From positions 1,828 through 65,827 of the forward strand of contig JADKIH010000002.1 in the NCBI GenBank assembly GCA_016721305.1: a stretch of DNA of 64,000 bases, given 5' to 3'. This stretch comes from Bacteroidota bacterium. GTDB lineage: Bacteria > Bacteroidota > Bacteroidia > AKYH767-A > 2013-40CM-41-45. Of this stretch, positions 1-64,000 are shown one piece after another. How positions within the stretch are numbered: position 1 is the stretch's first letter; each line of letters begins with the position of its first letter. Both the position numbers and the translations under genes were made by a program. The notes below the pieces were generated by a model. It did no database searches and was not told the origin of the DNA. It was given only the letters and a program-made list of their open reading frames with translations.

Positions 1-1868
1 ATGATCGGCCACCGATTCGCTTTGCTCAGCCTGAAGAGCTGTGACACTGAATTCGCCACTCTGTGAGTACGCTTTGTCTCCGACTTTCACTGTTGCCTTG
101 TACTTGTAATCACCGGCCGGCATGTAACCTGCGTTGAGCGTATATGCTTTATCTGTCTTCGAAAATGTATACGGGAAATTCTTGTTCTTCGAATTCGTTA
201 TCGTCACAGCGACATCCGGTGTGTTGATGAGCTCAAAATTGTCGTTGTAAACTTCCGCATCGAAGTTTACTGTTTCATTTTCATCGAACGCCGATTTATT
301 CGTAATCCTGAAATGCGATTTGTTTTCGCGAACACTTAGATTCTGAACCGTTTTAATGCCCAGCTATTAAACACATCGAAATTTTCATTCGTGCTGTAGT
401 CGCTCAATCGCCACTTCCAGATTCCTTCACCACACAATACTCCGATTCGTTGAGTAGAATTCTGATTGAATGCCTGCAACGGTTGATCTGTCGACACACT
501 TCCGATTTGCTGCTGCAGCAATATCGCATTGTTCGCAGTCGAACGGAATTGTCCGAACGGAGTAAGCAAAGCCGGGAAGGTCGGTAAATTCTGGCTTGTA
601 GCCTGATCAATGGTGAAGAGCGAAAAATCGTTATTCACTTTCGCCTGCACCGAATTCGATTTATCAATATTTCCCGTAATTGAAATTCCGGTCTCCAGCT
701 TGTTGAACAATGAAGTGCTCACCTGAGTTCCCAGAATATACCAGACAGGAATGTTGGCAGTTTTGATTCGATCGATCAAATCCGTCATCGGATGTTGAGT
801 AGAGGGAATATTATGGAAGATGATCAGATTATTTTCATTCAGCGTTCCGACTTCCTGATCGGCTGTAATCACTTTCACCGAGTAATTCTGACTGCTTTCA
901 ATAGCCAGTTTCAAAGCTCCTAAATCGGGATGCGGTGCATTGCCGATCACTAAAATTTTCTGCTTGCTTTCTATCACTTCGACAAAAACATCGCGCTCGT
1001 TGTTGATCGTCGTCATTTCTCCTGAAATAGCAGAAAGTTGAATTTTGTAATGAATGATTCCGCCTTTCTTTGCATCGAGAATAACAGGCACGAGCTGATC
1101 AAATTTGTTTCCGGATATTTTTATCTCCTTCGAAAATACGAGTGAGGAATCTTGTCTTACGGTTAATATAGTCGTTGCCCCGCTCGACTGACGAGCATCG
1201 ACATGAACTTCTATTGGAAAGCTATTACCCAGATAAACCGTCTTATTGTAATTCAATCCTGAAATGAGCAAATCCTTTTGAACCGTAGTATCACCCAGAG
1301 CGATCGTGTACACAGGCACCTTACCGGCAGTTTCACGATAAAGCGGGCTGCTTCCGCGATTGTAAATTCCATCCGTCGCGATTACATAGGCACCGACATT
1401 GCGGTTTGCATAACGATTATCTGACTCATCGAAGAAGGATGAGAAATCAGTTTCTTTATCTGTAAATGAATAGTTGATTTCGTCTTTAACCTTATCACCC
1501 CAGCTCACCGGTTTCACATCATACTTTTCCTTCAGAGCCGACATCATTTTGTCGAGCGCTTGACGATAAGAAGTGCGGTACTGAGCCGAATCTTTATTTT
1601 GAACAATACTCTCCGAATTATCCTGAGCGATAATCAGCAATGGTTTTTCTTTCTCTCTCGTAAATGTTCGAATCAAAGGCGTCAACAGCAGCAAGCAAAG
1701 GAAGAATACCAAAGCCGACCGCAAGACAAAAAGCAAGCGACGAAGCCACCGGTGTACGCCATCAAACGAATGGTCGTTCCGATACAATACGAATCCCGCA
1801 GCCAATCCTGCAAGCAAGCAAACAAAAACCCACCACGTAGGTAATTCAGTCAGAAATTGGAAGTTCAT
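1..1868 (-). CDS. Large membrane-anchored protein with two N-terminal TM helices followed by a vWA-like segment ('LLIIAQDNSESI'). It runs past the window start and is broken by a -1 indel near 351-354
   Basis: Track ORF 336..1868 has two N-terminal TM helices. The reverse translation of 1..335 stays open in another frame (KTVQNLSVRENKSHFRITNK...GDYKYKATVKVGDK). One extra T in the run at 351-354 joins the two frames. Confidence 0.5.
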
Positions 1869-1884
1869 AGGTTGGTGGCGAAGG

Positions 1885-2330
1885 TAGTGAATTTGGTAGT
1901 AAGTAGTAAGTTGGAATTCGTAAGTAGTAAGTAGTAAGTTGTAAGTTGACTTATTGTTAGGACTGTAGTTTTCTAGTTTGAGTAGGCTTATATGGAATTG
2001 CCGACAGATAAGGCTAAATGGACATTAAAAGCAGAAAACGACTTTGAATAATAATTGTTTTATTCTTATCAATAGACAAGGAAACATCCTCATTATGTGC
2101 AGATTATCGTTAACAGGCCGCAAATTGAAGAGTCATATTTAATCTCGAGTGAACATCTACTTTCATGCTTGATTCAATTTTACTATCTGAATATCAAAAG
2201 AAGAATGCACAATTTATGAACATAGTGCTTTAACGCTTAATAAAACGACGGTGGCTAAATACCTCAAGTCAACTTACTACTTACAACTTACTACTTACTA
2301 CCAAATTACTACCAAATTCCTACCTTCGCC
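1885..2330. repeat. Inverted-repeat (MITE-like) element. Arms of about 70 bp built from GTAAGTW heptamers (1885-1952 and 2265-2330) flank a 310-bp AT-rich spacer
   Basis: Left arm cgaaggtagtgaatttggtagtaagtagtaagttg... and right arm ...cttactacttactaccaaattactaccaaattcctaccttcg are near-perfect reverse complements. The element ends about 8 bp upstream of rnpB. Confidence 0.55.
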
Positions 2331-2337
2331 CCATCGC

Positions 2338-2704
2338 TGGCGTTCTATCGCCTCTTTGCAAGACAAGGGGAGGAAAGTCCGGGCAACATAGCGCATCCTG
2401 CTTCCTAACGGGAAGGGTTCTCTTCGGAGAATACAGCAAGTGCCACAGAAAATAACTGCCGGCTTCGGTCGGTCAAGGTGAAAACGTGAGGTAAGAGCTC
2501 ACGGCAGCAGGTAGTAATGCAGGCTGCGGGTAAACCTCAGGAGTTGAAAAACCAAATAAGTCATGGATTAAGGGTTGCGCGCCCAAGTTCACCTGTGATG
2601 CCATGATGGGTAGGTTGATTGAGGTGACGTGCGAACGTCATCCCAGATAAATGATAGAAGTCTCTTCGGAGAAACAGAACCCGGCTTATAACCGGCGATA
2701 CGAA
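2338..2704 (+). ncRNA. rnpB: RNase P RNA, bacterial type A
   Basis: Universal P4 motif GGAGGAAAGTCCGGGC is present. Conserved GGTGAAAACGTGAGGTAAGAGCTCAC and ACAGAACCCGGCTTA blocks are present. A P1 helix pairs 2343-2352 with 2694-2704. Confidence 0.9.
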
Positions 2705-2962: not shown

Positions 2963-5361
2963 ATGCATCTTCGTTATCATCAGAATTTCGTAAAAAATTC
3001 TGCACTTTTCTTCGTTCTCCTACTGCTTTACTTTCCTTCTTTCGCCAAAAAAGCACTCACACCGTCAGCGGCTACGTTATCGAAAAAGCGACCGGTGAAT
3101 CACTTCTTGGGGCTAATGTGTATTTGAAAGAAAATCTGAAAGGAACCACCACAAATCAGTATGGCTTCTACTCTATCACTGTTCCTGATGGAGATTATAC
3201 TCTCGTCGTTGCGTATTTGGGATTCATTTCTCAGGAAGTACCGATTACTCTTAAGACGGTAGATATCACTAAGAGCTTTAGCCTTGAAAGCGCTTCTATC
3301 GAAACGAAGGAAGTAACTATCAATGGCGAAAAAGAAGATCGGAATGTTCAAAGCGCCGAAATGGGCCGACAAAAATTATCGGTGGAAAAAATCAAAACGC
3401 TTCCGGCCTTTTTAGGTGAAGTTGATATCCTCAAAACAATTCAATTACTTCCCGGCGTCTCTTCAGCCGGTGAAGGTAACAGCGGTTTCTATGTTCGAGG
3501 CGGTGGTCCTGATCAAAATCTGATTCTCCTCGACGAGGCCAATGTTTATAACGCAGCTCACCTCTTCGGCTTCTTTTCTGTCTTTAATGCTGATGCCGTA
3601 CAAAACATCACTCTCACCAAAGGCAATATGCCGGCAAATTACGGCGGACGTCTTTCGTCGGTGCTCGACATTCAAATGAAAGAAGGAAACAATCAGCGCT
3701 TCGGTGTACAGGGTGGAATCGGCTTCGTATCGTCACGACTCACAATCGAAGGCCCGATCAAAAAAGACACCAGCTCGTTTATCGTTTCTGCCCGCAGAAC
3801 GTTCATCGATCTTTTCATGGGAAAACCTTTCGTCAGCAGCTCATCGAATTTCAATGGGAACAAATACTACTTCTACGATTTGAATGCAAAGGTTAACTAC
3901 CGTTTGAGCGATAAAGATCGTCTCTTCCTGAGTGGTTACTTCGGACGTGATGTATTCCGTTTTAAAAGCTCAAACTCTGATTTTACCGTCAATATTCCGT
4001 GGGGAAATGCAACAGCAACGGCTCGCTGGAATCACCTATTCCACAATCAGCTTTTCCTGAACACGTCTCTGATCTTTACAAACTACGATTTCTCATTCGA
4101 AGGCGGACAGGAAGAATTCAGCTTCAAACTCTTTTCAGGAATAAAAGACTACAACGTTAAAACTGACTTCACTTGGTTGCCTAATACGCAGCACACAGTG
4201 AAGTTTGGAATGAATTACATCTATCACGTCTTCATACCCAATAATGCCAGCGCACGCAGCGGTGATGTGAATTTCAATCTGGGTGATATCGTTCGTCAGT
4301 ATGCTCACGATGGCGCTGTTTATTTGAACGACAATTTTGAAATCAACGATAAATGGTTGCTCGATGGCGGCGTTCGTCTAACCTTATTCGATCAGGTTGG
4401 TCCGTTCGATCGATTTGTAAACGATCCGATCACCAACACTCCTACCGATACAATTCACTACGATGCCGGTCAAAGCGTGAAAGCTTACTTTCATGTGGAG
4501 CCTCGTTTTGCTGCCAGATATTCCATCAATCACGTTTCTTCTTTGAAGGCTTCTTACTCGCAGAACTATCAATACATTCACCTTGCTTCTTTGTCAGGAA
4601 TTTCTTTGCCTACAGATACCTGGGTACCTTCGTCTGATCGTGTTAAGCCTCAATTCGGAACTCAATACGCTCTGGGCTATTTCCGCAATTTGAAAATGAA
4701 TATGTACGAAACTTCAGTCGAGGTTTATTACAAAGAGATGAAAGACCAGATTGAATACCAGGAAGGTTTTCTTCCGGAAAATCAGGTCAACGGTAATCTC
4801 GACAACTTCTTCGTATTCGGAAAAGGTTGGAGCTATGGAGCAGAATTCTTTTTCAAGAAAGCAAAAGGCGATCTCACCGGCTGGGTGGGTTACACAATAG
4901 CCTGGACTAAACGTCAATTTGCTGATTTGAATCTTGGAAATACTTTTTATCCGAAATATGATCGTCGACACGATATCTCCGTTGTATTAACATACGATCT
5001 CAACGCACGATGGACATTCGGGGCAACATGGGTTTATGCCACGGGAAATCTCAACACCTTCCCTGAACGAATTTATCTGATGAGTAACGGTGATATCGTT
5101 GAAGATTACGGTGGACAAAGAAACAATTACCGTCTGCCAGCTTATCATCGAATGGACGTTAGCGCGACATACAAAATCAAAAAACACAAACGATTCGAAT
5201 CAAGCTGGAATTTCAGCATATTTAATGTGTACAATCGTTACAATCCATACATCATTTACTTCGACACAGCCTATGACCCGAACGGAAAGATCACGATTCA
5301 GGCTAAGCAAATTTCTCTTTTCCCTTTGATCCCAAGTGTCACTTACAATTTCAAATTCTAG
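2963..5361 (+). CDS. TonB-dependent outer-membrane receptor with a carboxypeptidase-D regulatory-like N-terminal domain and a plug. It carries a -1 frame break in the A6 run at 3047-3052
   Basis: A Sec signal peptide (MHLRYHQNFVKNSALFFVLLLLYFPSFA, ATG 2963) lies in one frame. The mature protein (KSTHTVSGYVIEKATGE..., plug, C-terminal aromatic TYNFKF) lies in the frame of track ORF 2755..5361. Reading A7 instead of A6 joins them. Confidence 0.8.
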
Positions 5362-6480: not shown

Positions 6481-8087
6481 ATGAAGTCAACACTACTTAC
6501 GCTTTGCCTCTTTTTTGCTCTCTCCTTTTCTTCAAAGGCGACAAATGTTCTCATTACAGAAAACACGCTTTACGTGTGCGATACGATATGGAAACATGTG
6601 GCAAACGGAATGGGAATGAACTCTATTATTCAATCCGATACATTTCTCGACAATACTTATTTTCTTACTCATGCCGATGTCGTCATCATTGCTACCTACA
6701 ATGTTAATTATACTCCTACTCGAGTAAATAACATCAAGCAATTTCTCGCCAGCGGAAAAAGTGTTTACCTGCAAACGGAATACGATTGTACTAACTTCCC
6801 CAGCGATGCAATCTACGAAGACATTGTCAATTCCCTTGGTGGCTCCTTCACTAGAGGAGGTACGATTTCCGGCATGTTAAACGTTAACGTGCTTGGCAAT
6901 ATGGCTACAACTCCCAACACCGTGACTCAAATTACCGATTTCTGGTACGGTTGCCAGGGAATTGCCTCATGTACCAATATGGATGCCTTTCTTGAACTTT
7001 CAGGAAATTATTTCGGATTTACTTTTGTCCTCCTATCAATGGCTACGGTCGCCTGATGACAACAACAGATCAGGACTGGGTTCGCAGTGGACTAACTATG
7101 CCGTTGATTGGAAATATGCTTAATTTGTTAGCTTCTCCTCCTTCAAATTGCGGACTTCCACAAACATCTTTGAATCTGGGTAACGACACGACTCTTTGTA
7201 GCGGACAATTCATCATGCTTGGAAATGGAATTACAGGGAACAGCTATCAATGGTCGACAGGACAAACTTCGAATGTTATTCTGGTGAATTCGCCAGGTAC
7301 TTATTGGCTTTCTGTCAGCAATTCAGGTTGCACACAGAGTGATACAATCACGGTGAATTTCTCGAATTGCAATTACCCCACATCGTCTTTCTCTGCATCT
7401 GTCTTGGACATCTGTACGGAGAATTGTACCGACTTTAGCGATCAGTCATCCAATAACCCAACGAGTTGGGCATGGTCATTCCCCGGCGGAAATCCAACAT
7501 CATCTACTGTTCAAAATCCCACACACATTTGCTATACTGTTCCCGGAGTGTACCCTGTAACACTAATCAGCACCAATGCATCCGGATCGGATACACTAAC
7601 GATGGATTCACTTATCACCGTGTATCTGGTTCCACCTCAACCAACGGTCACCGTTCACGGAGATACGCTTGTCACTACCGGCGGAGCTTCGTATCAATGG
7701 TTTTTCAATAACCAACAAATCTTAGGCGCAACGGATTCATTCTACGTTGCCACTCAACAAGGATCTTACTCAGTTGAAATCGCCGACATTGCAGGTTGTA
7801 TTAATACGTCCACAGATGTAATCATGTCTGTCGATGAAGCCGGCTTCGCTTCTTCTATCCTCCTTTTCCCTAATCCTTCCAATGGAGAACTCAACATAAA
7901 AGGCTTACCTGCAAATGCAGAAAAAATTGAAGTCTTCGATGCCATCGGAAAGCTCGTTGACTCATTCACCTTAACTTCAAGCGAACTCAACGTTCCGACA
8001 AATCACTACGAAGAAGGAGTTTACTTTGTACGAATTCTATCGGGATCAAATTCGTATTCGAAGAGGTTTACGGTTTTGCATCAGTAA
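6481..8087 (+). CDS. Secreted T9SS cargo protein with signal peptide, Cys-containing Ig-like repeats, a PKD domain and a T9SS C-terminal sorting domain. It is split by a frame break near 6996-7053
   Basis: ORF 6481..7056 has a signal peptide but no sorting domain. ORF 7056..8087 has a PKD domain and a Por-type C-terminal domain but no signal peptide. The second frame is already open from 6996. The two ORFs overlap by 1 nt. Confidence 0.55.
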
Positions 8088-8349
8088 AGTATCAATCTTA
8101 TACTTAGGCGATGAATTATGCTTGAATCGTTTAGATTTCGTGAATTGTGAAATGAAAAAGATTTTACCAAATGGTTTGCGGCGAAAACGGAAGTAGTTTG
8201 TTGTGGGGGGCCGTCCACGTGCGTGTGGCCTTCATCTCGGTGGTGAATCGAAGAAAGTAAAATAATCAAGTTTCAAATGTTGATCCGGAGAAAGATGTTA
8301 CAATAAGTAAGGAGAGATGGAGGCTGCGCGTGGTCGCCTTTTTCTTTGT

Positions 8350-8390
8350 TTCTTTCTTTTTGTTCGCTTCAGCGAAAAAAAGAAAGAAAA
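8350..8390 (-). terminator. Hairpin downstream of the cytochrome c peroxidase gene
   Basis: Inverted repeat tttctttcttttt...aaaaagaaagaaa placed 3' of the minus-strand stop. There is no clean U-tract. Confidence 0.3.
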
Positions 8391-8446
8391 ATCATCGACC
8401 AGTAATATGCGTACTTCTTCAGTTAGTTCAGTGCCGGAATCGTTAA

Positions 8447-10244
8447 CTAATATTGCCCACCCACCACTCTTTCATTAAGTGGATTTCCATCTTGAAACCT
8501 TGGCAACTTATTTGGCACAGAAGTAATATCCACCGTATCCGTCAAACTTTGCAAAAACGATATCAACTCAAATTTCTCTGTTGAAGTAAGATGCAATGAA
8601 TCTTCCGACAAAGTTTGAAACGGCACGTCGTATCCTAATCCTATACCTCCTCCGTCGTTGTAAAACTCAATGACTTCATCAAGTGTCCTGAACACGCCAT
8701 TGTGCATGTACGGACCTGTGATGGCCACATTACGCAAAGTCGGTGTTTTAAATGCATGTCGGAAAATATCGACGCCAATAACATTGTAACGTCCTAAATC
8801 GTCGTCCAACTCGCGTGGATTCGTAAGCTTAGCCGATGGTGTGCCGACGATCTCCCATTCTGTTTCCACATACTCCGGCGGCACAGCGCTATTGAAGAGC
8901 GGAATGAAATGGCAGGAAGCACAAGCGGCTTTTCCCATATACAAATTAAAGCCATTGATTTCATCCTGATTCATCACAAACTCCCGACCGCTAATCGTCT
9001 TATCGAACCGCGAATTCATTCCGATCAGTGTTCGCTCGTATTCCGCGATGGCTTGCAAAATAGATCTGTTCGTTATTTGTGTATCCTCCGTTCCGAAATA
9101 AGCTTCGCGAAAAAGCTTCTTATACTCTTCCGAATTCTTGAGCTTTACGGCTACGGCGGAGAAATCGTTATGCATTTCGAGCGGATTGCTCATCACCTGT
9201 CCGGCCTGATCTTCGAATGTAAATGATCGTCCGTCGTGAAATAATTTTCGTTGTAAAACAGAATTCACCAGCGTTGGTGCATTGCGCTTCAAAAATTTTC
9301 CGGGCTCGAACGACTGGCTCAATGGTAAACCATCGGTAAATGCCTTCCCAGGCTGGTGGCACGACGAGCACGCACGGAGATTGTTCGCCGATAAAGCAGG
9401 ATCGAAAAACAAAACCTGTCCAAGCTCCGCTACGGCACGATCATTCCGATTAGTCTTTCCGGGAACAAAATAATGCGAGTTAAACGCATGCGCATCGAAG
9501 ATCGAGCGTACCTGAAGATTGATGGCCATCAAACCATAATCGTTCGACTCCTTTACAACAGAATTTCGGGTATAACCTAACTGTCCGCTAAGCTCGTTAT
9601 AATACTGCGTATAGTATTCGAAGTAATTTGCATCACCTTTCACATTGCGCAGATAAGCAACGGAACGATCGAGCAAACGATAAATATCGTTTAGCTGCAT
9701 AAGCGCATCGCCTTCCGGATTCGGATACATGGCCAGCAGCATATCTTTCATCCCCTGCAGAACGGCCGCCGATTCTCTCACACCATTCTTGCTATCCGGC
9801 GTTTCTGCATTGGCAAAGCCCAGCATAAACTGACGAATGAGCTCGTATTGAAAAGCCTCCCAGATATGATTTTCCCGCATCTCCAGATTACCGAATGACT
9901 CAGGCATCCGATCTACAAGGAGAAAAACATTATCGACTACATTTTTTAATACCTTCCGCTTAAACTCCAGACTGTCGCCATACAAAATCTGCTCTGCATA
10001 TTGTAAACCTTCCAAAGGCACAAGCGGCGTTATCTCATCGTCTTCCTCAATCGAAGGCACGGCAGCACGGTTAATCCTGCGCGCATTCCCCCCACTGCAG
10101 CCGCAAAGAATCACTCTCCACCGCAAGCGCAAACTTCAATCCTACCACAGGCCTACTCTCATCCGCCGGTCGAAAAGCCATGACAGCAAGCACAACAACC
10201 CAAACGATTAATACAAAAGGAATACTTTTCTTAAGTCTACTCAT
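8447..10244 (-). CDS. Di-haem cytochrome c peroxidase (CCP/MauG family) with an N-terminal extension. It is broken by a +1 indel in the C6/G6 run at 10088-10093
   Basis: Two CxxCH motifs (CSSCHQPG, CASCHFIP) are present. A signal peptide MSRLKKSIPFVLIVWVVVLAVMA (ATG 10244) is in the adjacent frame. G5 instead of G6 fuses it to track ORF 8447..10132. Confidence 0.8.
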
Positions 10245-11911
10245 CTTACACCATCATTGCTTTGCGTCGTTTCTTCACATTTTCGACGGCAGTTTTGTGA
10301 TTGTAAGATACGCCTTTTATTTTGGCCATAAACCACTCTTCGAAGATGATGAGTTCGGGGGAGTTGGGTTTCCAGGAAAACTTGAACACAACTTTGCAAT
10401 GTGGCTATCAACAACACTTGAAGACTTTTTAAAGTCGAAACTATTTCTAACTAAAATAGACAAAATTCGATAAATCACCTTCAACCTTAGCAACTCCTTT
10501 TCATCCAATTTATAATTTTCGATTTGCTTTCTTAACGATTCTATTTGACTCTCCGCTTGTAACAATCTATCCTGTTCACATACAGTAAAATTAAAGTAAA
10601 TTTTAAATATAAATTTTCCAAACTTTTGAAGAAACTTATTCAGTTCATATAGCAACTTATTGGCTTTTGAAAACTCCTTCATCAGAAACTAATAAACCGA
10701 ATTATAATAGGCGATTTTTCTCCTTTGGGTTTCATTCAGAGAATTAGCTTTAGGTAACAATTTCGTTAGATAACCTTTCGCAAATCTTGATGTGCTCCTA
10801 CGCAAATTGAATTCAAAAAAACAATTCATAAATCAGAAATGTTTATAGTATTTTTCGACCTAAGTGCTAGTGAATCATTTAAAAAATTAATAGAAGATTA
10901 AAACCGAAATAAACTTTTAATTCCATATTAGCAAAGTTCAAATAGCACATTAGCATATCATTTCTTGTTGAGCTTACTTTGACAAGAAATCAAATATCTA
11001 TAAAGTTTTAAAAATCGCTCTCGCTTTTATCTTCAACTTGATTATTAAATGACAAACTCAAAGAACTTTAAGATAAAATATTAATTTTCAATCTTGTTGG
11101 AAGGTAGCTAGATAAGATTTCTCAATCCTGACTAAAACATTTTCAATCTCTCGACATATAAACCCGATTTTGAGCCTAGAAGCTGAAAACTGAATACTTT
11201 CTCAATAAAACTCAGTCTTATTTATTGCAGTATAATAATACAAATTTTCTTTGATCAAGAACCCTCCTGAAATCTCTCCAACTTTGATCGCAATGACAGT
11301 TTTGCTCAACTTTTATTTAAAGCAATCAATAAATATTCGTAAAACTCAAAACTTAAACACTTTTTAATTACCTTATCCAGAATGAACATTCCGCTTTCAT
11401 AATTACCATGAATAGAAAGAACATCAGCCTGAGTTAAACTTTTTCTAATCAGTAAAAATCCTTTGATCGGTCATCATATATATCACTCTTAAGAATGGAA
11501 TGCTTTTCGACTAATATATCAAAATCTTATCAAAAGTCTTTGAAAAAGCCGCTTTGATGCAGCAACTGAAATTTTCCCATAAATCACATTTGAAACCTTG
11601 AGCTGCAGATATTTCGTTATCCTTATCAATTAGCAAAACAACCTTTTTAGATTGGCTACCAACGCCACTTTTAATATTTAAACCCTTAAAACCTCTTTCT
11701 TTTTCACGTTGAGTTAAACTTACAACAAGTGTACTTAGCTTTTCAAACTCATTCATATCTATTTTGACTTAGCGGTTATTCTAAATATTATTTTAAACTT
11801 AATAAAATAAGTTTAATTATACAAATTTCAACGTCCAAATTTCTGCACTTTTTCCATTAGTCTCGAAAGAACTCACCTTACATTTGACTACCAATATTCT
11901 AAAACCACATA

Positions 11912-12136
11912 ATGAGATTCTCAAACAAGTCCAAAAACGAAAAACTATTTGACATAGGAAGCACATTCCGGCAACTTAGACTACGAAAAGGTTTTAAATC
12001 AGCCGAATTATTTAGCTATGAACATGAATTAAATAGAACAGCATATTGGAGATGGGAAAATGGAGAAAATATCACAATGAAGAACTTTCTAAAGCTATGC
12101 GATATTCATAAAATTACTCCTACAGACATTTTTTAA
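11912..12136 (+). CDS. XRE-family helix-turn-helix transcriptional regulator (Cro/CI type)
   Basis: LRLRKGFKSAELFSYEHELNRTAYWRWENGENITMKNFLKLCDIHKITPTDIF matches the HTH_XRE pattern. It lies inside the AT-rich block. Confidence 0.5.
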   Translation: MRFSNKSKNEKLFDIGSTFRQLRLRKGFKSAELFSYEHELNRTAYWRWENGENITMKNFLKLCDIHKITPTDIF

Positions 12137-12356
12137 TGATTGACAAAAGAAAACTGGGATCAAAAACAGTGAACTACTAAACGAACCAGGAAGTGTTTTT
12201 AAAAAAAAAAGAAAAGAACCTAACATTTACTTAAAAACCATGCATCAAATCGAACTAATTCTGGCGACTTCAGTCTCCAACCATAAACAAGATCGCTTTG
12301 ATCTTGTAATTTAAAATTGCTTACCTCTCTTCTCAAGGACAGTTTCAAAATCACAA

Positions 12357-13387
12357 TTACTGTTTATTAATTTGATCAAAGAATTGACAATAGTTGTATA
12401 CCGCGGCCTTAAGATGCTTCTGTTTGCTTAAACGCTTTAGGTACTTTTGAAGATTTTGAACTTGCAAATCGACAGATTCAAAATCCTTCATTTCAATACG
12501 ATTCATAATGATTAGTATCCTACGGCAAATATTCCACCCTCTTTGTCCTTCTCTATTTCTTTTTGTTCTTCTAGTTTGTCTAAAGACAACTGAAATCTCC
12601 TTGACAAAAATCACACATGCGAGTAAAAATTAAATTTGCTAATTAGCAAATCTGCACTCAAAAATGACTTTGACTTTGAATCAAGCGTGATATACTTCTC
12701 AGATTCATCATACCTTTGCATATAGAATAGAGAATAGAAAATAGTCTCATCAACCATCTTTAATGTTAAAGGTAATTTCGTAAAATAACTTTTACTTTCC
12801 TCACTTAACTTGATGCTCCTCTCAAACTCCCTTAACAAAATCGCGTTATTTGCAAGATTAATTAAAACAGAACCAATTCTGTTTTCTGTATATTGAAAGA
12901 TTCGTCTCCAGTAAATCTCTTATCTCTTCAAAATAGTAATTTGACTTTTGTAATCCCTAGCTATTTGAGCTTTCTCTGCAAGAAAGGTAAATAAATAATA
13001 TCTAAGAATTGCCGAATTGAAATTTCGAGTCTGCCTTTTTAATTCAGAAATCGCTGAACTTAAATCCTCTTTGTAAGAATTTGAATCACTTGACAAACTA
13101 ATTCTATTCGTAATTTCATTGAAAATATTCTGACTATGATTTATTGCCATCCAACACTTCTCAGTAGTATCTATTTCTGAATTAATCTTCCTGAGCATTT
13201 TTACTGAAGCGGCTCCTGATATGAGTCGCCTTTTTGAATACAAAGAATGCAACAGCACATCATACACCTCAATTTTTTTAGCTTTCTTTATTACAGAGTC
13301 ATGAATACCTATCACCTCTTGCCTCAGGCCTTTTAATTGAAGTATATCTGCCTGAATAAGCATTTTTCTCAATTCGAAAACCTGCAC
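12357..13387 (-). CDS. Hypothetical protein or proteins. Three abutting minus-strand ORFs (155, 75 and 85 aa) may be one indel-fragmented gene
   Basis: ORFs 12920..13387, 12611..12838 and 12357..12614 are head-to-tail with overlapping ends. Translations are AT-rich and of low complexity. No family was recognised. Confidence 0.2.
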
Positions 13388-51351: not shown

Positions 51352-52520
51352 TTGAAAAATCAGCCTATGAATATTCTGATGATCACCAAGTGGTATCCCT
51401 ATGATAAGGATCCGCAAATGGGCGTATTCATTCAGAAGCATGCGCGGGCCATTGCGCTTTCAAATAAGATTCATGTCATTTATGCTTATTCGGCAGAGCG
51501 ACAAAAAGAGAAGTTTTTACATAGAGAGTCTGAAAACGGAAATCTCACAGAGCATCGTATCTCTTATCAAAAAGACACCTCTCCTCTTTCGAAAATCATC
51601 AATGCTCAGCGCTATAAACAGGCTGTCGAAATGGTTGTCGACACATTGACCCATCGTGGTTTTAAAGCCGACATTCTGCATGCATATATTTTGCTCCGAA
51701 CAGGCTGGATGGCACGACAGTTAAGTCGAAAATTAAATATCCCGTATATAATTTCCGAACAATGGTCGGGTTACGCTACAGGTAAATACGCAGCACAATC
51801 GTCGGTCGTAAAACGACTGACAAAATCAGTTTTAAAGATGCTGCAGGGCTGACCGTTGTTTCTGAATTTCTACGTGACAAAATGGTGTCACAGGGATTGT
51901 CGCATCCTCGAACAATCATTACACCCAACATTGTTGAGCCCCGGAATTCAGATCATCCAACACAAAACAAAAGCAAGAAAATTGCTGTGCTGATGGTAGC
52001 GGATCAGGTCGATGAAATCAAAAACATCAGCGGTGTTATCAGAGCTGTCGAAGAAATTGCGAAACATCGTAACGACTTTGAACTTCGAATCATCGGTCAC
52101 GGAAAAGATCAGTTACGGCTTATGAGAATGGCTGAAGAAAAAGGACTGCTCAATTCTGTGATCCATTTCGAAGGCTTAAAAGACAACAATGAAGTTTACG
52201 CCTACCTTCATCGCTCTGATTTTTTAGTCATGAATAGCCGCTTCGAAACATTTTCCCTGATTTGTTGCGAAGCGATGAGTTGCGGAAAACCCGTTTTGGC
52301 TACCCGATGCGGAGGCCCCGAGAGCTTCGTTAACTCTGACACCGGAATACTCATACCGGTAGATCACCACGAAGATCTTGTCTCAGGGTTAGAAAAAATG
52401 CTGGATTCTTTCCAAGATTTTCATGCAGAAAAAATCAGAGAAAGTGTAGAGAAACGCTTTAGCATAGAAACTCTTTCATTAACATTTTCAAATTTTTACG
52501 AGAAAGTAACCAAGCCCTGA
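51352..52520 (+). CDS. Family-4 (GT-B) glycosyltransferase with one missing A in the A3 run at 51834-51836
   Basis: N-terminal Glyco_trans_4-like part (ORF 51352..51852) and a C-terminal GT1 part with E-x7-E (ORF 51882..52520). Reading A4 gives ...RLTKSVLKDAAGLTVVSEFLRDKMVSQGL... Confidence 0.7.
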
Positions 52521-52719: not shown

Positions 52720-54664
52720 ATGAAAAAAGGATTACTCATCTGCTTATCGGTGGCTGTAAGTTTGTGCTCGTCTTCCTCACGGTTTTCGTAAAGCTGAAGT
52801 TCCGGCCGCTTTAAAGAGCCGTACAATCAAAGTACCGTTCAGAACTGCCAATATGGATAATGGCGTTCCGACGAACAATCTCGCGAGCCGCACTTACGTT
52901 GCTCCGCAAAGAACTGCAACATTATCAACAGGTCTGATCGATGAGTATTTGGTTGGTTATTCTTTCTATGATCTTCAAACAAATGCTTCTATCAGCAACC
53001 GCTTAGTTGTTAATGATGACAATTCAATCGCAGCTGCTTGGACATTCTCTCCAAATGCAACTACGAACTTCCCTGATCGTGGAACGGGTTACAACTATTC
53101 ATCTGATGGCGGAACAACTTGGTTATTCCCAACAGTGATTGGTGTTTCTCAAGGACCTTCAACTCGTACTGAATCTGTACGTACAGGTTTCACGAACATC
53201 GTTAACTGTACAGGTGGTTCAGAAATGAGCATCCAACACACAGGTACTGCAATGTCTTTAAACTACCGTCCTGCAAAAGGTACTGGTGCTTGGACAATTA
53301 GCTACCCATGGGGAACTGCAAACAACGACACTTGGCCAAAAGCAATTGCATCAGGCGATAACGTTTATGCAATCTGGCAAGGTAGCGGTACTACAGGTAC
53401 TCCAACATTAGGACAAGATGGTCCAATGTTCCTTTCCATCTCTAACGATGGTGGTGTTACTTGGAGCACAAAATCTGTGATCTCTTTGATCGACTCTACT
53501 CACTACCTCGGTTTCGGTGGTGATGATTACTCAATCGATGTAAAAGGTAACACTGTTGCAATCGTAGTTGGTAATCAATTGTCTGACATCGTTCTCCTCA
53601 AATCTACAGATGCAGGTGCAACTTGGGCTTCAACAGTTATCTATCAGCACCCAATCCCAATGTACGATTTGAACACAATGATCTCTGATACAAATGCTGA
53701 TGGAATCTTTGATACTTTGATGTCAACTTCAGGTGATGCAGCTGTATTGATCGACGATAACGATCTGTGCCATGTTTGGATGTCAGATTTCCGTTGGTAC
53801 TGCGACTTGTCAACTGTAGGAAGCTACAACTACTTCCCTTCAACTGACGGTCTTGAATACTGGAATGAAAATATGGCAACAGGCGCTTATGTATTGATCG
53901 CTGCTGCTGAAGATTTAAATGGTAATGGCGTACTTGACGCACCGGGCGACGAAACTTGCTCTGGCGTAGGTTTAGCATGGGGTAACTACCGTGGAGGTAT
54001 TACCGGAATGCCATCTGCCGGTATCGATATGAGTAATGGAAGAATGTATGTTTCTTACCAAACAATCGATGAATTAGCTGATACAGCACTTTATCACCAA
54101 GCTCACCGTCACGTTTACATGATCGCTTCTGATGATCATGGTTTAACTTGGAGTTCTCCTGTCGACATCGTTCCAACTATCGCTGATGGTGGTGATGGTG
54201 AAAACCAGGAAGCTGTTTTCGCTGCAATGGCAAAACGCGTTGTAAACAACACTGCTTACGTACTCTACCAACGTGACCCATACCCTGGACACGCATTGGC
54301 TGCTGCAGGTACTTGTGACCTTGCAAACAACCTTGGTAACTCATCTGATCTCGTGTTCGCACGTTTAGATGCAGCTATCGTTTCAACAGGTAATCTTGAC
54401 AACAACAATTTGTTCGTTTCTCAAAACTACCCTAACCCTGCTTCAGCAAGTACAAGCATTAAAGTTACTTTGAAGAAATCAGCTGATGTAACAATCACTG
54501 TATCTGACATCATCGGTCAGGTTGTTTTCTCTCAAACACAAAACAACGTTAATGCAGGTACTCAAGTTATCAATCTGAATACTGCTAACTGGCATTCAGG
54601 TGTGTACACTTACACAGTAACTTCAGGTGACCAAAAAACTTCTCGTCAGATGATCGTTCAATAA
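52720..54664 (+). CDS. Secreted BNR/Asp-box repeat (sialidase-fold) protein with a T9SS C-terminal sorting domain. The signal peptide is in a different frame
   Basis: Asp-boxes SNDGGVTWS, STDAGATWA and SDDHGLTWS. C-terminus NYPNPASASTSIKVTL...GVYTYTVTSGDQKTSRQMIVQ. Signal MKKGLLICLSVAVSLCSSSS (ATG 52720) is joined to the main frame by a 1-nt change in T4 at 52783-52786. Confidence 0.65.
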
Positions 54665-54735: not shown

Positions 54736-55431
54736 TTAGTGGAGATTGTATCGCTCCACAGTGAAACCTTCTGCATATTTGAATCCGGCCGGTCGGCCCA
54801 TTTCTGCGCTTCTACCTGCTAAAAATTCGAGACCCTCTTTCGTTGAAATAGCCGTCTGAGGGCCTTTGGCTCCAGGCTGATAAAACTGAGTCTTGTAAGC
54901 CTGAATAGCATCCATTTTCTGATCCCAATGCAGCGAGATGTCGACAACTACGTCGGGCTTCAGGAATCGATCCTGAATGTAGTGGTAAACAGATTTTACC
55001 TTCCAAGCCTTTTGATCCTGCTCTTCAAATGAGGTTTCTACTTTCGGCAGCCCGGCAAGGAAGACAGAATTACTAACAAGTCCCGATGCTCTTCCATGGT
55101 CGGGATGACGATCTGATTCGGCATTACAAAGGATGATCTCAGGCTGATATTTGCGGATCATCTTTACAATCTCCAGCTGATGCTCCTTGTCGTTGGTGAA
55201 AAAGCCATCGTCCATGCCCAGATTTTCACGAACCGAAATACCCATTATCTGAGCCGCTGCCGCAGCTTCGCGGTCACGGGTATCCGCATCGCCTCGCGTA
55301 CCCAATTCGCCTCGTGTAAGGTCCACAATTCCGCATTTATAGCCATGATTGATATGTGATATCAATACACCGGCAGCACTCAGTTCTACATCGTCGGGAT
55401 GGGCCCCGAAGGCCAGGATGTCCAATTTCAT
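54736..55431 (-). CDS. bshB1: PIG-L/LmbE-family N-acetylglucosaminyl deacetylase (bacillithiol biosynthesis BshB1-like)
   Basis: ILAFGAHPDDVELSAAG (the family's metal-binding HPDD motif). Start is the internal ATG at 55431. Confidence 0.65.
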   Translation of the reverse strand: MKLDILAFGAHPDDVELSAAGVLISHINHGYKCGIVDLTRGELGTRGDADTRDREAAAAAQIMGISVRENLGMDDGFFTNDKEHQLEIVKMIRKYQPEIILCNAESDRHPDHGRASGLVSNSVFLAGLPKVETSFEEQDQKAWKVKSVYHYIQDRFLKPDVVVDISLHWDQKMDAIQAYKTQFYQPGAKGPQTAISTKEGLEFLAGRSAEMGRPAGFKYAEGFTVERYNLH

Positions 55432-55533: not shown

Positions 55534-56932
55534 ATGAACATATCCTTCCATGGTGCTGCCCGAACAGTTACAGGTAGCAAACATCTTTTAACCCTAGATT
55601 CGGGAATAAAAATCCTTCTCGATTGTGGCATGTTTCAGGGTTTGGGAAAAGATACCGACCCGCTTAACCGGCATTTGGGTTTTAATCCGGCCGAAGTAGA
55701 TTACCTCATTCTCTCTCACGCTCACATCGACCACTCCGGAAATATCCCTTATTTAGTCAAACAAGGTTTTGAAGGAAAAATTATCTGCACGGCGGCAACA
55801 CGTGACCTGGCAGCTATTATGCTGGCCGATACTGCTCATATTCAAGAATACGATATTCAATACATCAATAAGAGAAAAGCCAGAAAAGGCGAAGCTCCTA
55901 TTGAAGTCCTGTATACCATGGAGGATGTTGATGACGCGCTGAAGCTCTTCTATGGGATCCCTTACCAGAAAGACTTCGAAATTTGTCCGGGGGTAACGGT
56001 CAGATTTACCGATACAGGCCACATTCTTGGTTCTGCAGCAGTAAATTTAAAAATCACAGAAGGCTCTAAAGAAACTCGTATCACATTTACCGGCGATATT
56101 GGCAGGCCGGGGGATAAAATTCTAAAAGTACCTGAATCTTTTCCGCAAGCCGACTACATTATTTGCGAAAGCACCTATGGCAATCGTCTGCATGAATCTT
56201 CAGAAAAGACCGAACAACACTTACTCCAGGTTGTCAGGGAAACATGTGTGGAGAAAAAAGGCAAACTAATCATTCCTGCCTTTAGCCTGGGAAGAACTCA
56301 GGAAGTCGTTTATGTTTTGAATAATCTTCGAAATGCCGGCTTACTTCCCAATATACCGGTATATGTCGATAGCCCTCTCTCGGTGAATGCAACGTCCATT
56401 ATGCGAGCACATCCTGAATGTTTTAATGGAGGCATTCTTCAATCGTTACGCAACGACCCCGATCCTTTTGGTTTTGATACGCTTCATTACATTCAGAAGG
56501 CAGAGGATTCGATTGCATTGAATGAAAGAACTGAACCAATGATTATCATATCCGCCTCAGGCATGGCCGAGGCCGGACGAATCAAGCATCACCTTAAAAA
56601 CAGCATCAGCAAAAAACAAAATACCATTCTGATGGTTGGGTATTGTACTCCGGAAAGCTTAGGAGGTCGTATTGCCAGAGGTGAAACTGAAGTCCGTATC
56701 TTCGGCAAAGAGTACAAAGTGATTGCCGATGTTGAAGTCATGAACAGCTACAGCGCGCACGGCGATTACAAAGAAATGCTTGATTTCCTGTCTTGCCAAA
56801 ATCCGAAGAAAGAAAAAACTATTTTTAGTTCACGGAGAATATGATGTGCAAATTGAATGGGCCGAAAAATTAAAAGAAGCCGGATTCTCGAATATTGAAA
56901 TTCCTGACTTACACTCAACTGCTGAACTTTAA
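55534..56932 (+). CDS. MBL-fold beta-CASP metallo-hydrolase (RNA-metabolising type), with one indel in the A5 run at 56813-56817
   Basis: HAHIDHSG motif, beta-CASP motifs and an RNA-specificity C-terminal domain. Shifting one frame restores ...QNPKK(E)KLFLVHGEYDVQIEWAEKLKEAGFSNIEIPDLHSTAEL*. Confidence 0.7.
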
Positions 56933-59059: not shown

Positions 59060-61478
59060 ATGGATACAAACTATATTGGCGAGCACCTTTTCTGGGGAAA
59101 AATTGGAAATCTGCTTGTCATCCTTGCCGGAACTGCGGCGTTGCTCTCAACAATTTCTTACTACTTCGCTCTTCGCAAAAATGATTCCGCCTGGAAGAAA
59201 CTGGCTCGACAGGCATTTGCCATTGAGACATTTTCCGTCCTGGGAATTTTCGGAATTCTATTTTATCTGATTTTCAATCAACGCTTCGAATACTTCTACG
59301 TATGGGAACACAGTAATTCTGTGATGCCTTTACGTTACATCCTCTCCTGTTTCTGGGAAGGACAGGAAGGAAGCTTTCTCCTGTGGATGTTTTGGCATTG
59401 TGTGTTAGGATGGATTCTCATCGCCACTTCGAAAGAATGGGAAAACGGTGTAATGTTCGTGATCTCTCTTGTGCAAGTTTTCCTTGCTTCTATGATTTTC
59501 GGCATTGTCATATTCGGACATAAAATTGGCAGCAATCCATTCATTCTTCTTCGTGAGCATCCGGATTTCGCCAATCTCCCGTTCATCAAGATGCCGGATT
59601 ATCTCAGTAAGATAAAAGATGGCCGTGGTTTGAATCCGTTGCTTCAAAACTACTGGATGACAATTCACCCTCCAACACTTTTCTTAGGCTTCGCATCTAC
59701 TGTCGTACCATTTGCTTTTGCGATCGCAGCTTTGATCCAAAAGAAATATACCGAGTGGATTAAGCCTGCATTACCATGGACGGTATTCGGAGTAATGATT
59801 CTTGGAACCGGTATCCTCATGGGTGCAGCATGGGCATACGAATCACTCAGCTTCGGAGGTTTCTGGGCCTGGGATCCTGTCGAAAATGCTTCGCTTGTTC
59901 CATGGATGACAATGGTGGGCTTGCTGCATGTCATGCTGATTTATCGCTATCGGACACGCTCGTTAATGTCGACGTACATTCTGGACATTGCAACATTCTT
60001 CCTCATACTCTACTCTACGTTTCTTACACGAAGCGGAATCTTGGGCGGTTCTTCCGTTCACGCGTTCACTGATTTAGGCATGTCGGGGCATTTGCTTATT
60101 TACATGTTATTCTTCCTGGTACTCTCTATTGTACTGCTCGTAATAAATCGAAAAGCTCTCAAAGAACATACGGAAGAAGAGCATGTCAGCTCACGCGAAT
60201 TCTGGATGTTTATCGGAATGCTCGTACTTGTAATCGGAAGTCTTCAGATCACTTTTACAACCTCGATTCCTGTATTCAATAAATTATTTGGAAGTAAGCT
60301 TGCTCCACCTGCTGATCCGATCGACCACTACAATCAATGGCAGGTTCCTATTGCTATTCTGGTTTCATTACTCCTGGCAATTGGCCAGTATTTTAAATAC
60401 AAAAAATCTGACTCGAAAGAACTTTGGAAAAAACTGTCGCTTAGCTTAATCATTGCAGCCGTCATTACCGGCTTAAGCGCATTTTACCTTGGTAGTTATC
60501 GTGTACACTACTACTTCCTCTTCTTTGCATCGGTGTTTGCCTTCGTCGCTAATTTCGATTACTTCATCCGTACGCTTAAAGGCAAATTTGAAAACTCAGG
60601 CCCATCGATTGCACACGCCGGGATTGCACTAATATTACTCGGCGCTCTTATCTCAAATTCGAAGAAAGAAGTCATTTCCCGAAATCTGAAAAATATTGAT
60701 CTCGGTAAAGACATGCCCAACAAAGAGAATATAATGATCGAGCAACAAACAGATACGTTGCCGATGGGTTCTTACTTTGTGAGCTACACTAAACGCGAAC
60801 AAAAAGGCGTGAACGTTTATTTCGACATCGATTACTATAAGCAAAACCCAAGCACCGGAAAAAGAACTGGCTTTCCGTCACAACCTCTCGTTCAGTTGAA
60901 CGAACGAATGGGCAATGTTGCTGAACCGGCCACAAAGCACTTCCTTACTCAGGATATCTACACACATCACCTACGCCGAACTTGATAAACGAGGCGAAGG
61001 AAGTGATACATTGTACCAAACCCAAAACAAAATCCTCGCCATCGGCGACACTATTGTAACCAGCAACAGCTTTGTTATAGTTAAAGGTTTGGATAAAGAC
61101 ATCGATCGCGCCAACTACAATCTTAATGATTCAGATTTGGCTGTCGCTGCCATTCTTTCTGTGGAAGATGTAAACAAAAAAATCTATACGGCTAAGCCAC
61201 TTTTCGTAATCAGAAACTTCAGCGTTTTTGTTCAGGAATCTGAAATACCTGAATTGGGATTGAAATTTGTCTTTAGTAAAATTGATCCTGAAACCGGAAA
61301 AATTGAATTGAGCGTGTCTGATAAAAAGTCAAACAAAAAAGATTTCGTCATCATGAAGGCCATCATTTTCCCGGGCATAAACATTCTTTGGATGGGTTGC
61401 TTACTGATGATTATAGGTTCTGTTGTTGCCATTCGAAAACGAGTCAATCAACTTAAGAAGTCAAATACCGCTGCATGA
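59060..61478 (+). CDS. ccmF: Cytochrome c-type biogenesis protein CcmF (haem lyase subunit), with one indel near 60961-60970
   Basis: WWD motif WGGFWAWDPVENASLVPW and >12 TM helices. Frame A ends at DIYTHHLRRT*. Deleting 1 nt restores DIYTHITYAELDKRGEG..., which continues into ORF 60915..61478. Confidence 0.85.
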
Positions 61479-62245: not shown

Positions 62246-62264
62246 TTTTTCTATTATTGTGTAG

Positions 62265-62780
62265 ATGAAAAACTTTAAAGAACGCCTGAAAAATGTCCGC
62301 TGTCTGATTTTCGACGTCGATGGTGTGCTCACGAACGGAACTCTCGTGGTGATGCCCGGTGAACTACACCGGATCATGAATATTCGTGATGGATTTGCTC
62401 TGAAGGAGGCCGTTACAAAGGGCTTACATGTTGCAATTATTTCCGGAGGTAAATCTGAAAGCGTAAGAACGCGTTTGCACAATTTGGGCATTAAAGATAT
62501 CTATCTCGGCATCGAAGATAAAACGGAGCGATACGATGAGTTGAAAATCATGTACGATTTGACAGATGACGAAATCCTATACATGGGCGACGACCTTCCC
62601 GATTATTATGTCATGAAAAGAGCCGGTGTTCCTTGTTGTCCCAACGATGCCGTTCCTGAAATTCGTGAGTTGTCAGTCTATATCAGCCCTGTCAAAGGAG
62701 GCGAAGGCTGTGTTCGTGATGTTGTTGAACAGGTTCTAAAGATACAGGGCAAATGGCCGGTTGGACCGGTTGGCTCCTAA
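62265..62780 (+). CDS. kdsC: 3-deoxy-D-manno-octulosonate 8-phosphate phosphatase (HAD family)
   Basis: LIFDVDGVLTNG (motif I), ISGG (motif II) and MGDDLPD (motif IV). Confidence 0.85.
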   Translation: MKNFKERLKNVRCLIFDVDGVLTNGTLVVMPGELHRIMNIRDGFALKEAVTKGLHVAIISGGKSESVRTRLHNLGIKDIYLGIEDKTERYDELKIMYDLTDDEILYMGDDLPDYYVMKRAGVPCCPNDAVPEIRELSVYISPVKGGEGCVRDVVEQVLKIQGKWPVGPVGS

Positions 62781-63756
62781 TTCGTATGAGTATGCAAGCC
62801 ATCTTCCGACTCATTCGACTTCCCAATCTTTTACTAATCGTTTTTGCGCAGGCAATGGTGAGATATTGCCTTATCCTCCCTGCATTTAACATCTATCAGA
62901 AAGTAACCGGAGAATTTCCGTCGCATCTGTCACCATTCTACTTTTCATTATTGGTTCTTTCTACCATCTTCATTGCGATTGGAGGAAATATCATAAACGA
63001 CTATTTCGACATCTCCATAGATGAAATTAACAAACCCGGGAAAAATATCGTAGGGAAATCAATTTCAGAGAAAGCAGCTCAACAACTCGCTTTTTCATTT
63101 TTTATCATCGGCGTAGCAATCTCTGTGTTCCTTGCCTTCAAAATCCAAAAGCCTGTGATGTGCAGTGTCCAGATTTTATCTGTTATCACTCTTTACATGT
63201 ATTCGTCATTCTACAAGCGTAGATTGCTGATCGGAAATTTCATGATTGCATTTCTCTCGGGACTGAGCTTACTCACCGTTGGCTTATACGAACCGGAATA
63301 TTATGCAAATCTGACTTTCCTTTTCATCTATAGCTTATTTGCCTTCGAAGTCTCCTTGATCAGAGAATTGATCAAAGACGTTGAAGATTTAGACGGCGAT
63401 GAACGTGCACAGTGCAAAACTTTCCCGGTACGTTACGGAATCAATAACAGCAAAAAACTGATCGTACTTTTCATTGTTCTTACGTACGCAACGATAGAAT
63501 GGATTCTCATCACTTATTTTTACAAAAACACTGTCATCAATTTCTGGTATTTATCAGCCTTGTTTTTCATTCCTTTCGCTGCATTATTTTATCTCGTCAT
63601 CACTGCTTCGGAGAAAAAGGACTTCTCTTACGCATCCCTATTTAGCAAAATCATCATGGCTGCCGGCATACTTTCAATGGCGGATTATGGTATTACTTCA
63701 TTCGTTAATGGCAGACAACTCCAGATTCTTTCCAAATTAAAAATCGTTCTTGGCTC
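62753..63756 (+). CDS. UbiA-family membrane prenyltransferase. The 3' boundary with maf is unclear
   Basis: NDYFDISIDEINKPGK is the Asp-rich motif of UbiA prenyltransferases, with multiple TM helices. The same frame runs straight into a Maf N-terminus with no stop, so there is probably a lost stop or indel near 63740-63760. Confidence 0.55.
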
Positions 63757-64000
63757 TGCATCACCGAGGCGGAAACAAATACTGGCTGAGACCGGATTCA
63801 ACTTCGTTGTTCGCACGTGAAGTCGATGAAACTCCGGATCCTACCTCTCAAGAGAGGCGATATTGCCACTTCGCTTTCAGTAAAGAAATCAGACGCGCTT
63901 ATTGAGTTGATGGAAGAAGATGAAATTCTGGTCACGGCCGATACTATAGTTTGTTTGGACCATTTCGTACTTAACAAACCGGGAAGTGAACAGCAAGCAA
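63757..64000 (+). CDS. maf: Maf-family nucleotide pyrophosphatase (partial, runs past window end), with two 1-nt insertions
   Basis: LKIVLGSASPRRKQILAETGFNFVV matches the Maf N-terminus. Removing one base near 63815-63820 and one near 63850-63857 gives ...TEVDETPDPTSQEGDIATSLSVKKSDALIELMEEDEILVTADTIVCLDHFVLNKPGSEQQA. Confidence 0.6.

Follow-up and report, generated by a model that had tools for sequence, protein, structure and literature searches.

The window analysed here, a stretch of 64 kb (64,000 nt), comes from a contig of a metagenome-assembled genome (MAG) deposited as "Bacteroidetes bacterium" with IPP51_ locus tags. That contig measures 449,914 bp, a size that would fit assembly from long reads. 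About 22 of the roughly 60 genes in the window are broken, and some 50 small lesions, mainly missing bases, are scattered over its length. The comparison set consists of some 45 same-species contigs, drawn from 15 other samples and 97.4-99.9% identical to the window at the nucleotide level; together they span 51.7 kb (51,720 nt). Same-species DNA is absent from the other 12.3 kb (8.3-19.6 kb and 42.7-43.7 kb), and lesions there were therefore judged by family, PDB and homologue alignments. Public contigs matching the 8.3-19.6 kb segment are at most 0.8-2.6 kb long. A scan of GTDB representatives returned genus-level relatives only (≤82% amino acid identity), usable for protein-level frame maps and not for run lengths, and exact database look-up of the window proteins of 678 and 710 aa returned no record. 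The window represents a distinct strain, with ~5.6 private substitutions per kb.

Sixteen genes are frameshifted within the covered 51.7 kb (run lengths are given below as window versus relatives, and fractions are the covering relatives that differ from the window). The first gene (351-354, reverse strand; T4 versus T5, 2/2) encodes 696 aa in relatives and is called as a 510-aa piece in NCBI (MBL0102689). In the TonB-dependent receptor gene (3045-3046, forward strand), CC versus CCC at about codon 37 severs the N-terminus of a protein of 812 aa in relatives. The initial annotation had placed this break in the run at 3047-3052; the break is real, but what is lacking is a C from the adjoining CC run (2/2). 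The PKD/T9SS cargo gene (7023-7026, forward; T4 versus T5, 2/2) is reduced from 535 aa to pieces of 191 and 343 aa, and the SRPBCC/Polyketide_cyc-like gene (19794-19795, forward; 154-156 aa in relatives) lacks two bases through a T4-to-T5 difference and an adjoining change (2/2). Three lesions fall inside 70 nt of the ABC-F gene (21753-21821, reverse; 8/8), namely A4 versus A5 at 21753, T5 versus T6 at 21787 and A3 versus A2 at 21819. The ABC-F peptide quoted in the initial annotation emerges only after repair and exists in no single raw frame of the window, so that it is not a product of chance. The exonuclease-GIY-YIG gene (28360-29297, forward) carries four lesions: a CG missing at 28360-28362, GGGT changed to GGA at 28790-28793, T4 versus T5 at 29235 (4/4) and A5 versus A6 at 29293 (4/4).

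Further along, the histidine kinase gene (33393-33397, reverse; 349-352 aa in relatives) shows G5 versus G6 (7/7), and the MORN_2-repeat gene (45917-45999, reverse; 235 aa in relatives) shows T5 versus T6 at 45917 and CC versus CCC at 45998 (3/3). Two bases are missing outside any homopolymer in the POT/PTR2 transporter gene (47969-47975, forward; 7/7). Near its 3' end, the DUF255 thioredoxin-like gene (48810-48828, forward; 9/9) lacks a C at 48810 and has T5 versus T6 at 48824; its product is 174 aa long in relatives versus 157 aa in NCBI. The GT4 glycosyltransferase gene (51834-51836, forward; 384 aa) differs by A3 versus A4 (1/1). The BNR/T9SS cargo gene (52765-52766, forward; 1/1) lacks 20 nt between direct repeats of GGCGT; it encodes 697 aa in the one covering relative versus 603 aa in NCBI. 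A missing TA at an A-run leaves the MBL/beta-CASP gene (56813-56818, forward; 2/2) with an ORF of 436 aa, compared with 466 aa in relatives. The most heavily affected stretch lies in ccmF (60859-61032, forward; 2/2), where 8 bases are missing at six spots within 170 nt (A5 versus A7, a T, an AC unit and three A-runs); NCBI holds the protein as two pieces of 641 and 155 aa. The UbiA prenyltransferase gene (63681, forward; 2/2; 318 aa in relatives versus 355 aa in NCBI) lacks a C close to its 3' end, and the 5' end of maf (63729-63845, forward; 2/2) shows T3 versus T4, a missing CA and CC versus C.

Two further genes bear in-frame lesions only. In the gene for a 461-aa secreted protein (30553-30558, forward; 5/5), an A plus CT/CA are missing, a net loss of 3 nt; in the PIG-L deacetylase gene (54749-54750, reverse; 2/2), the C-terminus lacks 21 nt, a gap that may be a real strain difference. 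Intergenic window-private indels occur upstream of the RNase P RNA, where they fall in short tandem repeats (1920-2320: a 7-nt unit at 1920, a C at 2308 and an A at 2320) and at 19621, 24977, 49120 and 52587.

Another six genes are broken in the uncovered 12.3 kb. In the di-haem cytochrome c peroxidase/MauG-like (CCP) gene (8447-10244, reverse), the frame breaks at a C6 run (10088-10093). Removing one C at 10088 joins the signal peptide to the CCP body to give 598 aa; the NCBI protein has 537 aa instead of ~600. At precisely this point homologues have ~40 extra residues, and judging from these alignments the lesion may be larger than a single base. Two hypothetical paralogues belong to an uncharacterised family of 440-494 aa: the second copy (10312-11449, reverse) is fragmented over three frames, with weak tblastn matches, and the other (12226-13581, reverse), in an AT-rich region, changes frame at least six times and contains an in-frame stop (12920-12922). 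In the peroxiredoxin/thiol peroxidase gene (17152-17565, reverse), one base added to the T4 run at 17190-17193 restores the C-terminus (158 aa). The ahpC gene (forward) is broken in an A6 run (17875-17880) and an A5 run (17969-17973), and gap (long-form GAPDH, forward) in an A5 run (43353-43357). Adding a single A at each of these three sites gives full-length family matches: a 209-aa 2-Cys peroxiredoxin that matches PDB 6khx from end to end (E=4e-89), and a GAPDH of 494 aa (495 aa in genus-level relatives) that matches NF006139 over positions 3-475 of 480 with 688 bits. A similar homopolymer break is present in ahpC of the nearest GTDB representative genome.

In the covered part, 37 indel sites set the window apart from every same-species contig that covers them, 34 of them with missing and 3 with extra bases. 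The relatives, 1-9 per site and from 15 samples in all, agree among themselves at 37/37 sites, and none of the 37 lesions was found in any covering same-species relative. Once the 37 edits are applied, the ORFs equal the relatives' genes in length, as with ABC-F (651 aa), exonuclease-GIY-YIG (474 aa), CcmF (808 aa) and POT (580 aa). The ten homopolymers that the initial annotation had listed as frame breaks are all present in the sequence, and all ten breaks are real, nine exactly placed and one off by 2 nt; comparison with same-species DNA bore out the altered run lengths at 21753, 21787, 29235, 29293 and 51834. Its figure of at least 17 broken genes is exceeded by the ~22 frameshifted genes that we count over the covered and uncovered parts. 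Its density of about one lesion per 3 kb was too low, the value being about one per 1.3-1.4 kb. The excess of deletions that it described stands, whereas A/T homopolymers account for only about half of the localised lesions (21 of 42); 7 lie in G/C runs and 14 elsewhere, the last comprising dinucleotide repeats, deletions combined with substitutions, and gaps of 7, 20 or 21 nt. Some lesions measure 2-21 nt. A single-base repair is not enough for POT, MBL, CcmF and the BNR cargo.

As a set, the lesions are unique to this assembly, biased towards deletion, dependent on run length in A/T tracts, clustered, and blind to coding. Thirty-three of the window-private indels are coding and 4 intergenic, in a covered region that is 92% coding; the indels polymorphic among relatives number 2 coding and 8 intergenic, nearly all in intergenic repeats (Fisher p=6e-5). 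The sole gene-internal private indel across all relatives is at 26994, in a single contig (L083), and the only long tract that varies among them (T9/T10 at 54711) lies between genes. Contraction affects 0.7% of A/T 4-mers, 3.5% of 5-mers, 5.3% of 6-mers and 6.7% of 7-mers, and none of the 8 runs of 8 or more. Gaps between neighbouring indels are shorter than 100 nt in 12 of 34 cases (p=1.5e-6), as in ABC-F and ccmF. Private substitutions show a weak excess near indels (10.0 versus 5.6 per kb, p=0.06). We looked for relaxed selection on the window-private substitutions of broken genes and did not find it: they comprise 128 synonymous and 40 non-synonymous changes (76% synonymous), against 52 and 11 in intact genes. 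A synonymous excess like that of intact genes indicates that purifying selection has acted on the broken genes until the present.

Could the indels be real, the work of a mismatch-repair-deficient mutator or of a newly host-restricted strain undergoing large-scale gene loss? Biological slippage likewise increases with run length and prefers homopolymers, and the window does derive from a distinct strain with private substitutions of its own. We nevertheless regard this as very improbable. The synonymous excess is the same in broken and intact genes, coding sequence shows no depletion of indels, several genes took 3-8 hits inside 70-170 nt, and gap, ccmF, ahpC and ABC-F would have been struck simultaneously. 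Contigs from 15 other samples of the species, moreover, carry intact genes. The 34:3 bias towards loss is also unlike the indel spectrum of mutators, which is more balanced between +1 and -1. Recently host-restricted bacteria such as Mycobacterium leprae and Sodalis are rich in pseudogenes, with relaxed selection and lesions shared across the lineage. The window resembles them in its many frameshifted genes per kb and differs in that selection is intact and the lesions are confined to a single assembly; genome decay was rejected on the tests for relaxed selection and for shared lesions, none of the 37 occurring in a relative. A still more extreme version, to which we give slightly less credence again, would have all run lengths correct, the strain belonging to a natural mutator lineage sampled shortly after a burst of deletions in homopolymers and short repeats. 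About one-third of its genes would then be broken, core metabolism included, and it would have to survive by cross-feeding or slippage-based rescue.

The many breaks in A or T runs might also suggest recoding, by programmed ribosomal frameshifting or transcriptional slippage. The runs concerned are just 3-6 nt long, however, one-third of the lesions lie outside runs, and in several genes 3-6 recoding events would have to take place. Conservation of the frameshift sites was not found: orthologues in same-species and genus-level relatives are single in-frame ORFs, with an in-frame version in every relative. Programmed frameshifting was rejected on this ground, and the chance that recoding explains the breaks appears negligible. 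Phase-variable contingency loci, and transcriptional slippage at long poly(A) tracts in endosymbionts, likewise change frame at mononucleotide runs, using tracts of at least ~8 nt in certain gene classes; the window differs from them in its runs of 2-7 nt, its affected housekeeping genes and its several hits per gene. Phase variation was rejected too: no tract of that length, varying among strains and sited in a surface or restriction gene, was found among the broken ones, which are 2-7 nt long and invariant among relatives. A mixture, in which most lesions are errors and a minority are genuine strain polymorphisms, is a different matter, and we would put its chances at about even. Candidates are repeat units gained or lost (1920 and 19621), the gaps of 21 nt (54749) and 20 nt (52765), the CG missing at 28360 and perhaps a loss of ~120 nt in CCP. 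Heptamer arrays of this kind differ by 6-14 nt among the relatives themselves, the gap at 54749 is in frame, and the CCP homologues are longer exactly at the break. Against this, the 20-nt gap frameshifts a conserved cargo gene at a site covered by a single relative, and short segments can also be dropped by long-read consensus. True strain differences may account for a few events: the changes by 7-nt units, the 21-nt gap that keeps the frame and the 20-nt gap between direct repeats.

The frame breaks are, with high probability, residual consensus errors of a metagenome assembly, probably a long-read-based one, and not mutations of the organism. The preference of the initial annotation for an assembly artefact over gene decay is upheld by the intactness of the same genes in 15 independent same-species assemblies, together with the loss bias, the coding blindness, the clustering and the synonymous excess. 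The housekeeping genes affected (gap, ccmF, ahpC and ABC-F) all repair to full-length family matches. As for the platform, Nanopore reads of the R9 type, partly polished, would be the most likely source. Bases would have been lost mainly in short homopolymers, with further losses in dinucleotide repeats and in a few stretches of poor local quality, and polishing would have mended most runs, leaving about one lesion per 1.3 kb. A plain picture of unpolished long reads is too crude, because the errors reach only 3-7% of the A/T runs of 5-7 nt and about one-third of the lesions lie outside homopolymers.

Judging from accession styles, the record may belong to the Danish activated-sludge Nanopore MAG set (PRJNA629478). 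That set was assembled with CANU and polished with Racon, two rounds of Medaka and one Illumina round of Racon (Singleton et al. 2021, PMC8012365), and its NCBI record style ("MAG: Bacteroidetes bacterium", IPxxx locus tags, MBL0... proteins) and contigs of hundreds of kb resemble those of the window. Residual indels are to be expected in MAGs of this kind, because they received only one round of short-read polishing. In genome and MAG assemblies from Nanopore R9.4.1 data, consensus indels in homopolymers fragment gene calls, and short-read polishing clears most but not all of them, so that "high-quality" MAGs may keep many frameshifts (Sereika et al. 2022, PMC9262707). The window shares these homopolymer indels and fragmented gene calls; it departs from the pattern in that one-third of its lesions are non-homopolymeric (dinucleotide repeats, 20-21-nt gaps) and in its strong clustering. 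Gene callers working on such a consensus output truncated, split or wrongly extended proteins, and NCBI nr already holds proteins of all three sorts.

The frame breaks themselves bring no new biology, and their value is one of quality control. In this public MAG contig indel errors occur about once per 1.3 kb, and roughly one-third of the genes are mis-called. The problem is not limited to one record, because the nearest GTDB representative has its own break of this type in ahpC. Pseudogene counts, metabolic reconstruction, domain-architecture surveys and selection analyses would be misled if based on the record as it stands.

The window (41-43% G+C, coding-dense, with one tRNA-His and one RNase P RNA) comes from a 449,914-bp MAG contig, and exact-sequence look-ups place its proteins at NCBI as MBL0102689-MBL0102742 (locus tags IPP51_02300-02610, "MAG: ... 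[Bacteroidetes bacterium]"). The closest GTDB species representative, MAG STL-BAC4 (GCA_046330055.1), shares only 82% protein identity with it. A homology search recovered a protein 100% identical to the window's WD40 protein in Logan and ENA assemblies. Starting from this match and from proteins in the same clusters as other window proteins, we assembled a same-species reference set of ~45 contigs (1.2-22.8 kb) from 15 different samples. At the DNA level these relatives share 97.4-99.9% identity with the window, and together they span 51,720 of the 64,000 nt; the stretches 8315-19592 and 42686-43687 lie outside same-species DNA.

The initial annotation had ascribed a large set of broken genes to one-base homopolymer indels arising in assembly. 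The ten runs that it singled out are all present as described, and its artefact reading is supported by our comparison. The genes it called broken that have same-species references are each a single ORF there: ABC-F (651 aa), Exo-GIY-YIG (474 aa), HK (349-352 aa), POT (580 aa), GT4 (384 aa), MBL/beta-CASP (466 aa), CcmF (808 aa), Maf (231 aa), TonB receptor (812 aa), the PKD (535 aa) and BNR (697 aa) cargo proteins and the first gene (696 aa). In the window, Pfam divides ABC-F between one ORF holding ABC_tran 2-137, the Xtn domain and the start of the second ABC domain, and a next one holding ABC_tran 102-137 and the CTD; the ABC-F peptide quoted in the annotation exists only after repair. RNase_T and GIY-YIG likewise match in separate frames.

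Altogether, 37 indel clusters set the window apart from all relatives covering them, with bases missing from the window in 34 and an extra base in 3. The relatives agree with one another, against the window, at all 37 sites, and copying in their sequence at these spots alone adds 93 nt and returns the ORFs to the relatives' lengths. Pure run-length changes make up 20 clusters, 13 in A/T runs (counting the triple A-run cluster of ccmF) and 6 in G/C runs; four further clusters combine an A/T contraction with an adjacent change, and 14 belong to neither type, involving AC/CA units, single bases outside runs, 7-nt repeat units or gaps of 20 and 21 nt. A/T-run changes account for only about half of the lesions, and several genes need multi-base repair; both points correct the first description. 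Across the whole 64-kb window we count at least 50 lesions, and ~22 of ~60 genes are frameshifted; the density is about twice the one lesion per 3 kb first estimated.

Could these lesions be real? Mass pseudogenisation, or descent from a mutator lineage, would also break many genes, but we consider it very improbable: selection tests contradict it, single genes are hit several times, and the same genes are intact in relatives. Window-private indels fall in ORFs in 33 of 37 cases, ORFs making up 92% of the region, and thus show no sign of selection against them. Indels polymorphic among the relatives number 2 in ORFs and 8 in intergenic DNA, a different distribution from the window-private ones (Fisher p=6e-5); where the relatives differ from one another by indels, they do so in intergenic heptamer arrays, except for one A7/A6 difference at the start of a gene. 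Among substitutions private to the window, synonymous changes outnumber non-synonymous ones 128 to 40 in broken genes (a set that includes an ORF on the wrong strand across the DUF255 gene, with small effect on the counts) and 52 to 11 in intact ones, whereas neutral decay would leave only ~1/4 synonymous. The broken genes are therefore still under purifying selection.

The lesions themselves point the same way. The frequency of A/T-run contraction climbs from 0.7% in 4-mers to 6.7% in 7-mers, and the 34:3 loss bias and run context fit consensus error. Twelve of 34 gaps between lesions are shorter than 100 nt (p=1.5e-6), as in ABC-F (3 lesions in 70 nt) and ccmF (8 missing bases in 170 nt); a locally poor consensus fits this better than independent mutations. 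Since orthologues are in frame and the runs short, we exclude programmed recoding. True strain differences may account for a minority of the larger or repeat-unit events, the doubtful ones being those at 52765, 54749 and 10088 and the repeat units at 1920 and 19621; the verdict of assembly artefact is unchanged by this. A few irregularities also occur in the relatives' short-read contigs: in L083 (ERR14064712) the Rax2/T9SS gene has A6 instead of A7 directly behind its start codon (window 26994-27000), giving a gene call of 370 vs 441 aa, and in L125 (ERZ926513) ABC-F, at the contig start, is split into 27-aa and 475-aa pieces.

The 12 kb outside same-species DNA were compared with protein families. 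AhpC, whose raw ORF piece matches AhpC-TSA only from profile position 56, becomes a 209-aa protein on adding one A at 17875 and one at 17969, residues 1-208 aligning with PDB 6khx (E=4e-89). A second peroxiredoxin, absent from the initial annotation's list, regains its conserved C-terminus with one base in the T4 run at 17190. GAPDH (42153-43633) reaches 494 aa with one A at 43353, above the NF006139 cut-off (positions 3-475 of 480), its genus-level relatives having 495 aa. It is of the long type (480-495 aa; NF006139/PRK08289) and carries an N-terminal extension, ~140 aa in length, that is conserved in those relatives. In the di-haem cytochrome c peroxidase/MauG-like gene (8447-10244, minus strand), shortening the C6 run at 10088 by one base fuses signal peptide to peroxidase body; however, this break may be a ~120-nt deletion rather than a 1-nt error, because homologues (600-645 aa) have ~40 extra residues between signal peptide and FFPGEAFRLNK motif, exactly there. 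Damage is heaviest at 10312-13581 (minus strand), where an uncharacterised 440-494-aa family without a Pfam match (homologues P0182 and P0183) is present in two tandem copies within an AT-rich stretch (10.3-13.6 kb, 38-39% G+C); the better-conserved copy (12226-13581, minus strand) has at least six frame changes in 1.4 kb and an in-frame stop.

Tandem arrays of heptamers or octamers (GTAAGTA/ACTTACT, GCAACCC/GTTGCGA, TAGGAAT, AATTAGCT), often paired in opposite orientation, occupy many intergenic spacers, at 1896-1946, 2272-2324, 15303-15521, 17078-17101, 18404-18699, 19474-19627, 20197-20292, 29767-29842, 32252-32351 and 43636-43725. Their copy number differs among strains by 6-14 nt. The pair that separates gap from the convergent gene downstream of it folds into a 36-bp hairpin that is nearly perfect (-57.4 kcal/mol, z=-13.4), and the arrays look like repeat-built terminator hairpins. 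Between ahpC and mazG, a 122-nt unit is repeated 1.9 times (18436-18671, 92% match), with arrays of the AATTAGCT octamer on either side. The full-length class A bacterial RNase P RNA (2332-2704, plus strand, 231.8 bits) is located between the first gene and that for the TonB receptor; window-private one-base losses at 2308 and 2320 fall in an 11-12-nt tandem repeat immediately upstream.

A MAG contig of ~450 kb would fit a long-read origin. Nanopore consensus indels in homopolymers yield frameshifted gene calls, which short-read polishing reduces but does not abolish (PMC9262707). In one large MAG study, Medaka was followed by just one round of Racon with Illumina data (PMC8012365); its likeness to the window's record is one of record styling only. 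GCA_046330055.1 probably carries homopolymer errors of the same kind, its ahpC having a frameshift of its own (A5 at 4684-4688, against A6, in frame, at 18042-18047 of the window). The window's lesions are a known kind of assembly artefact, of low biological interest; the record stands as a warning that mis-called proteins from this source are already in public databases.
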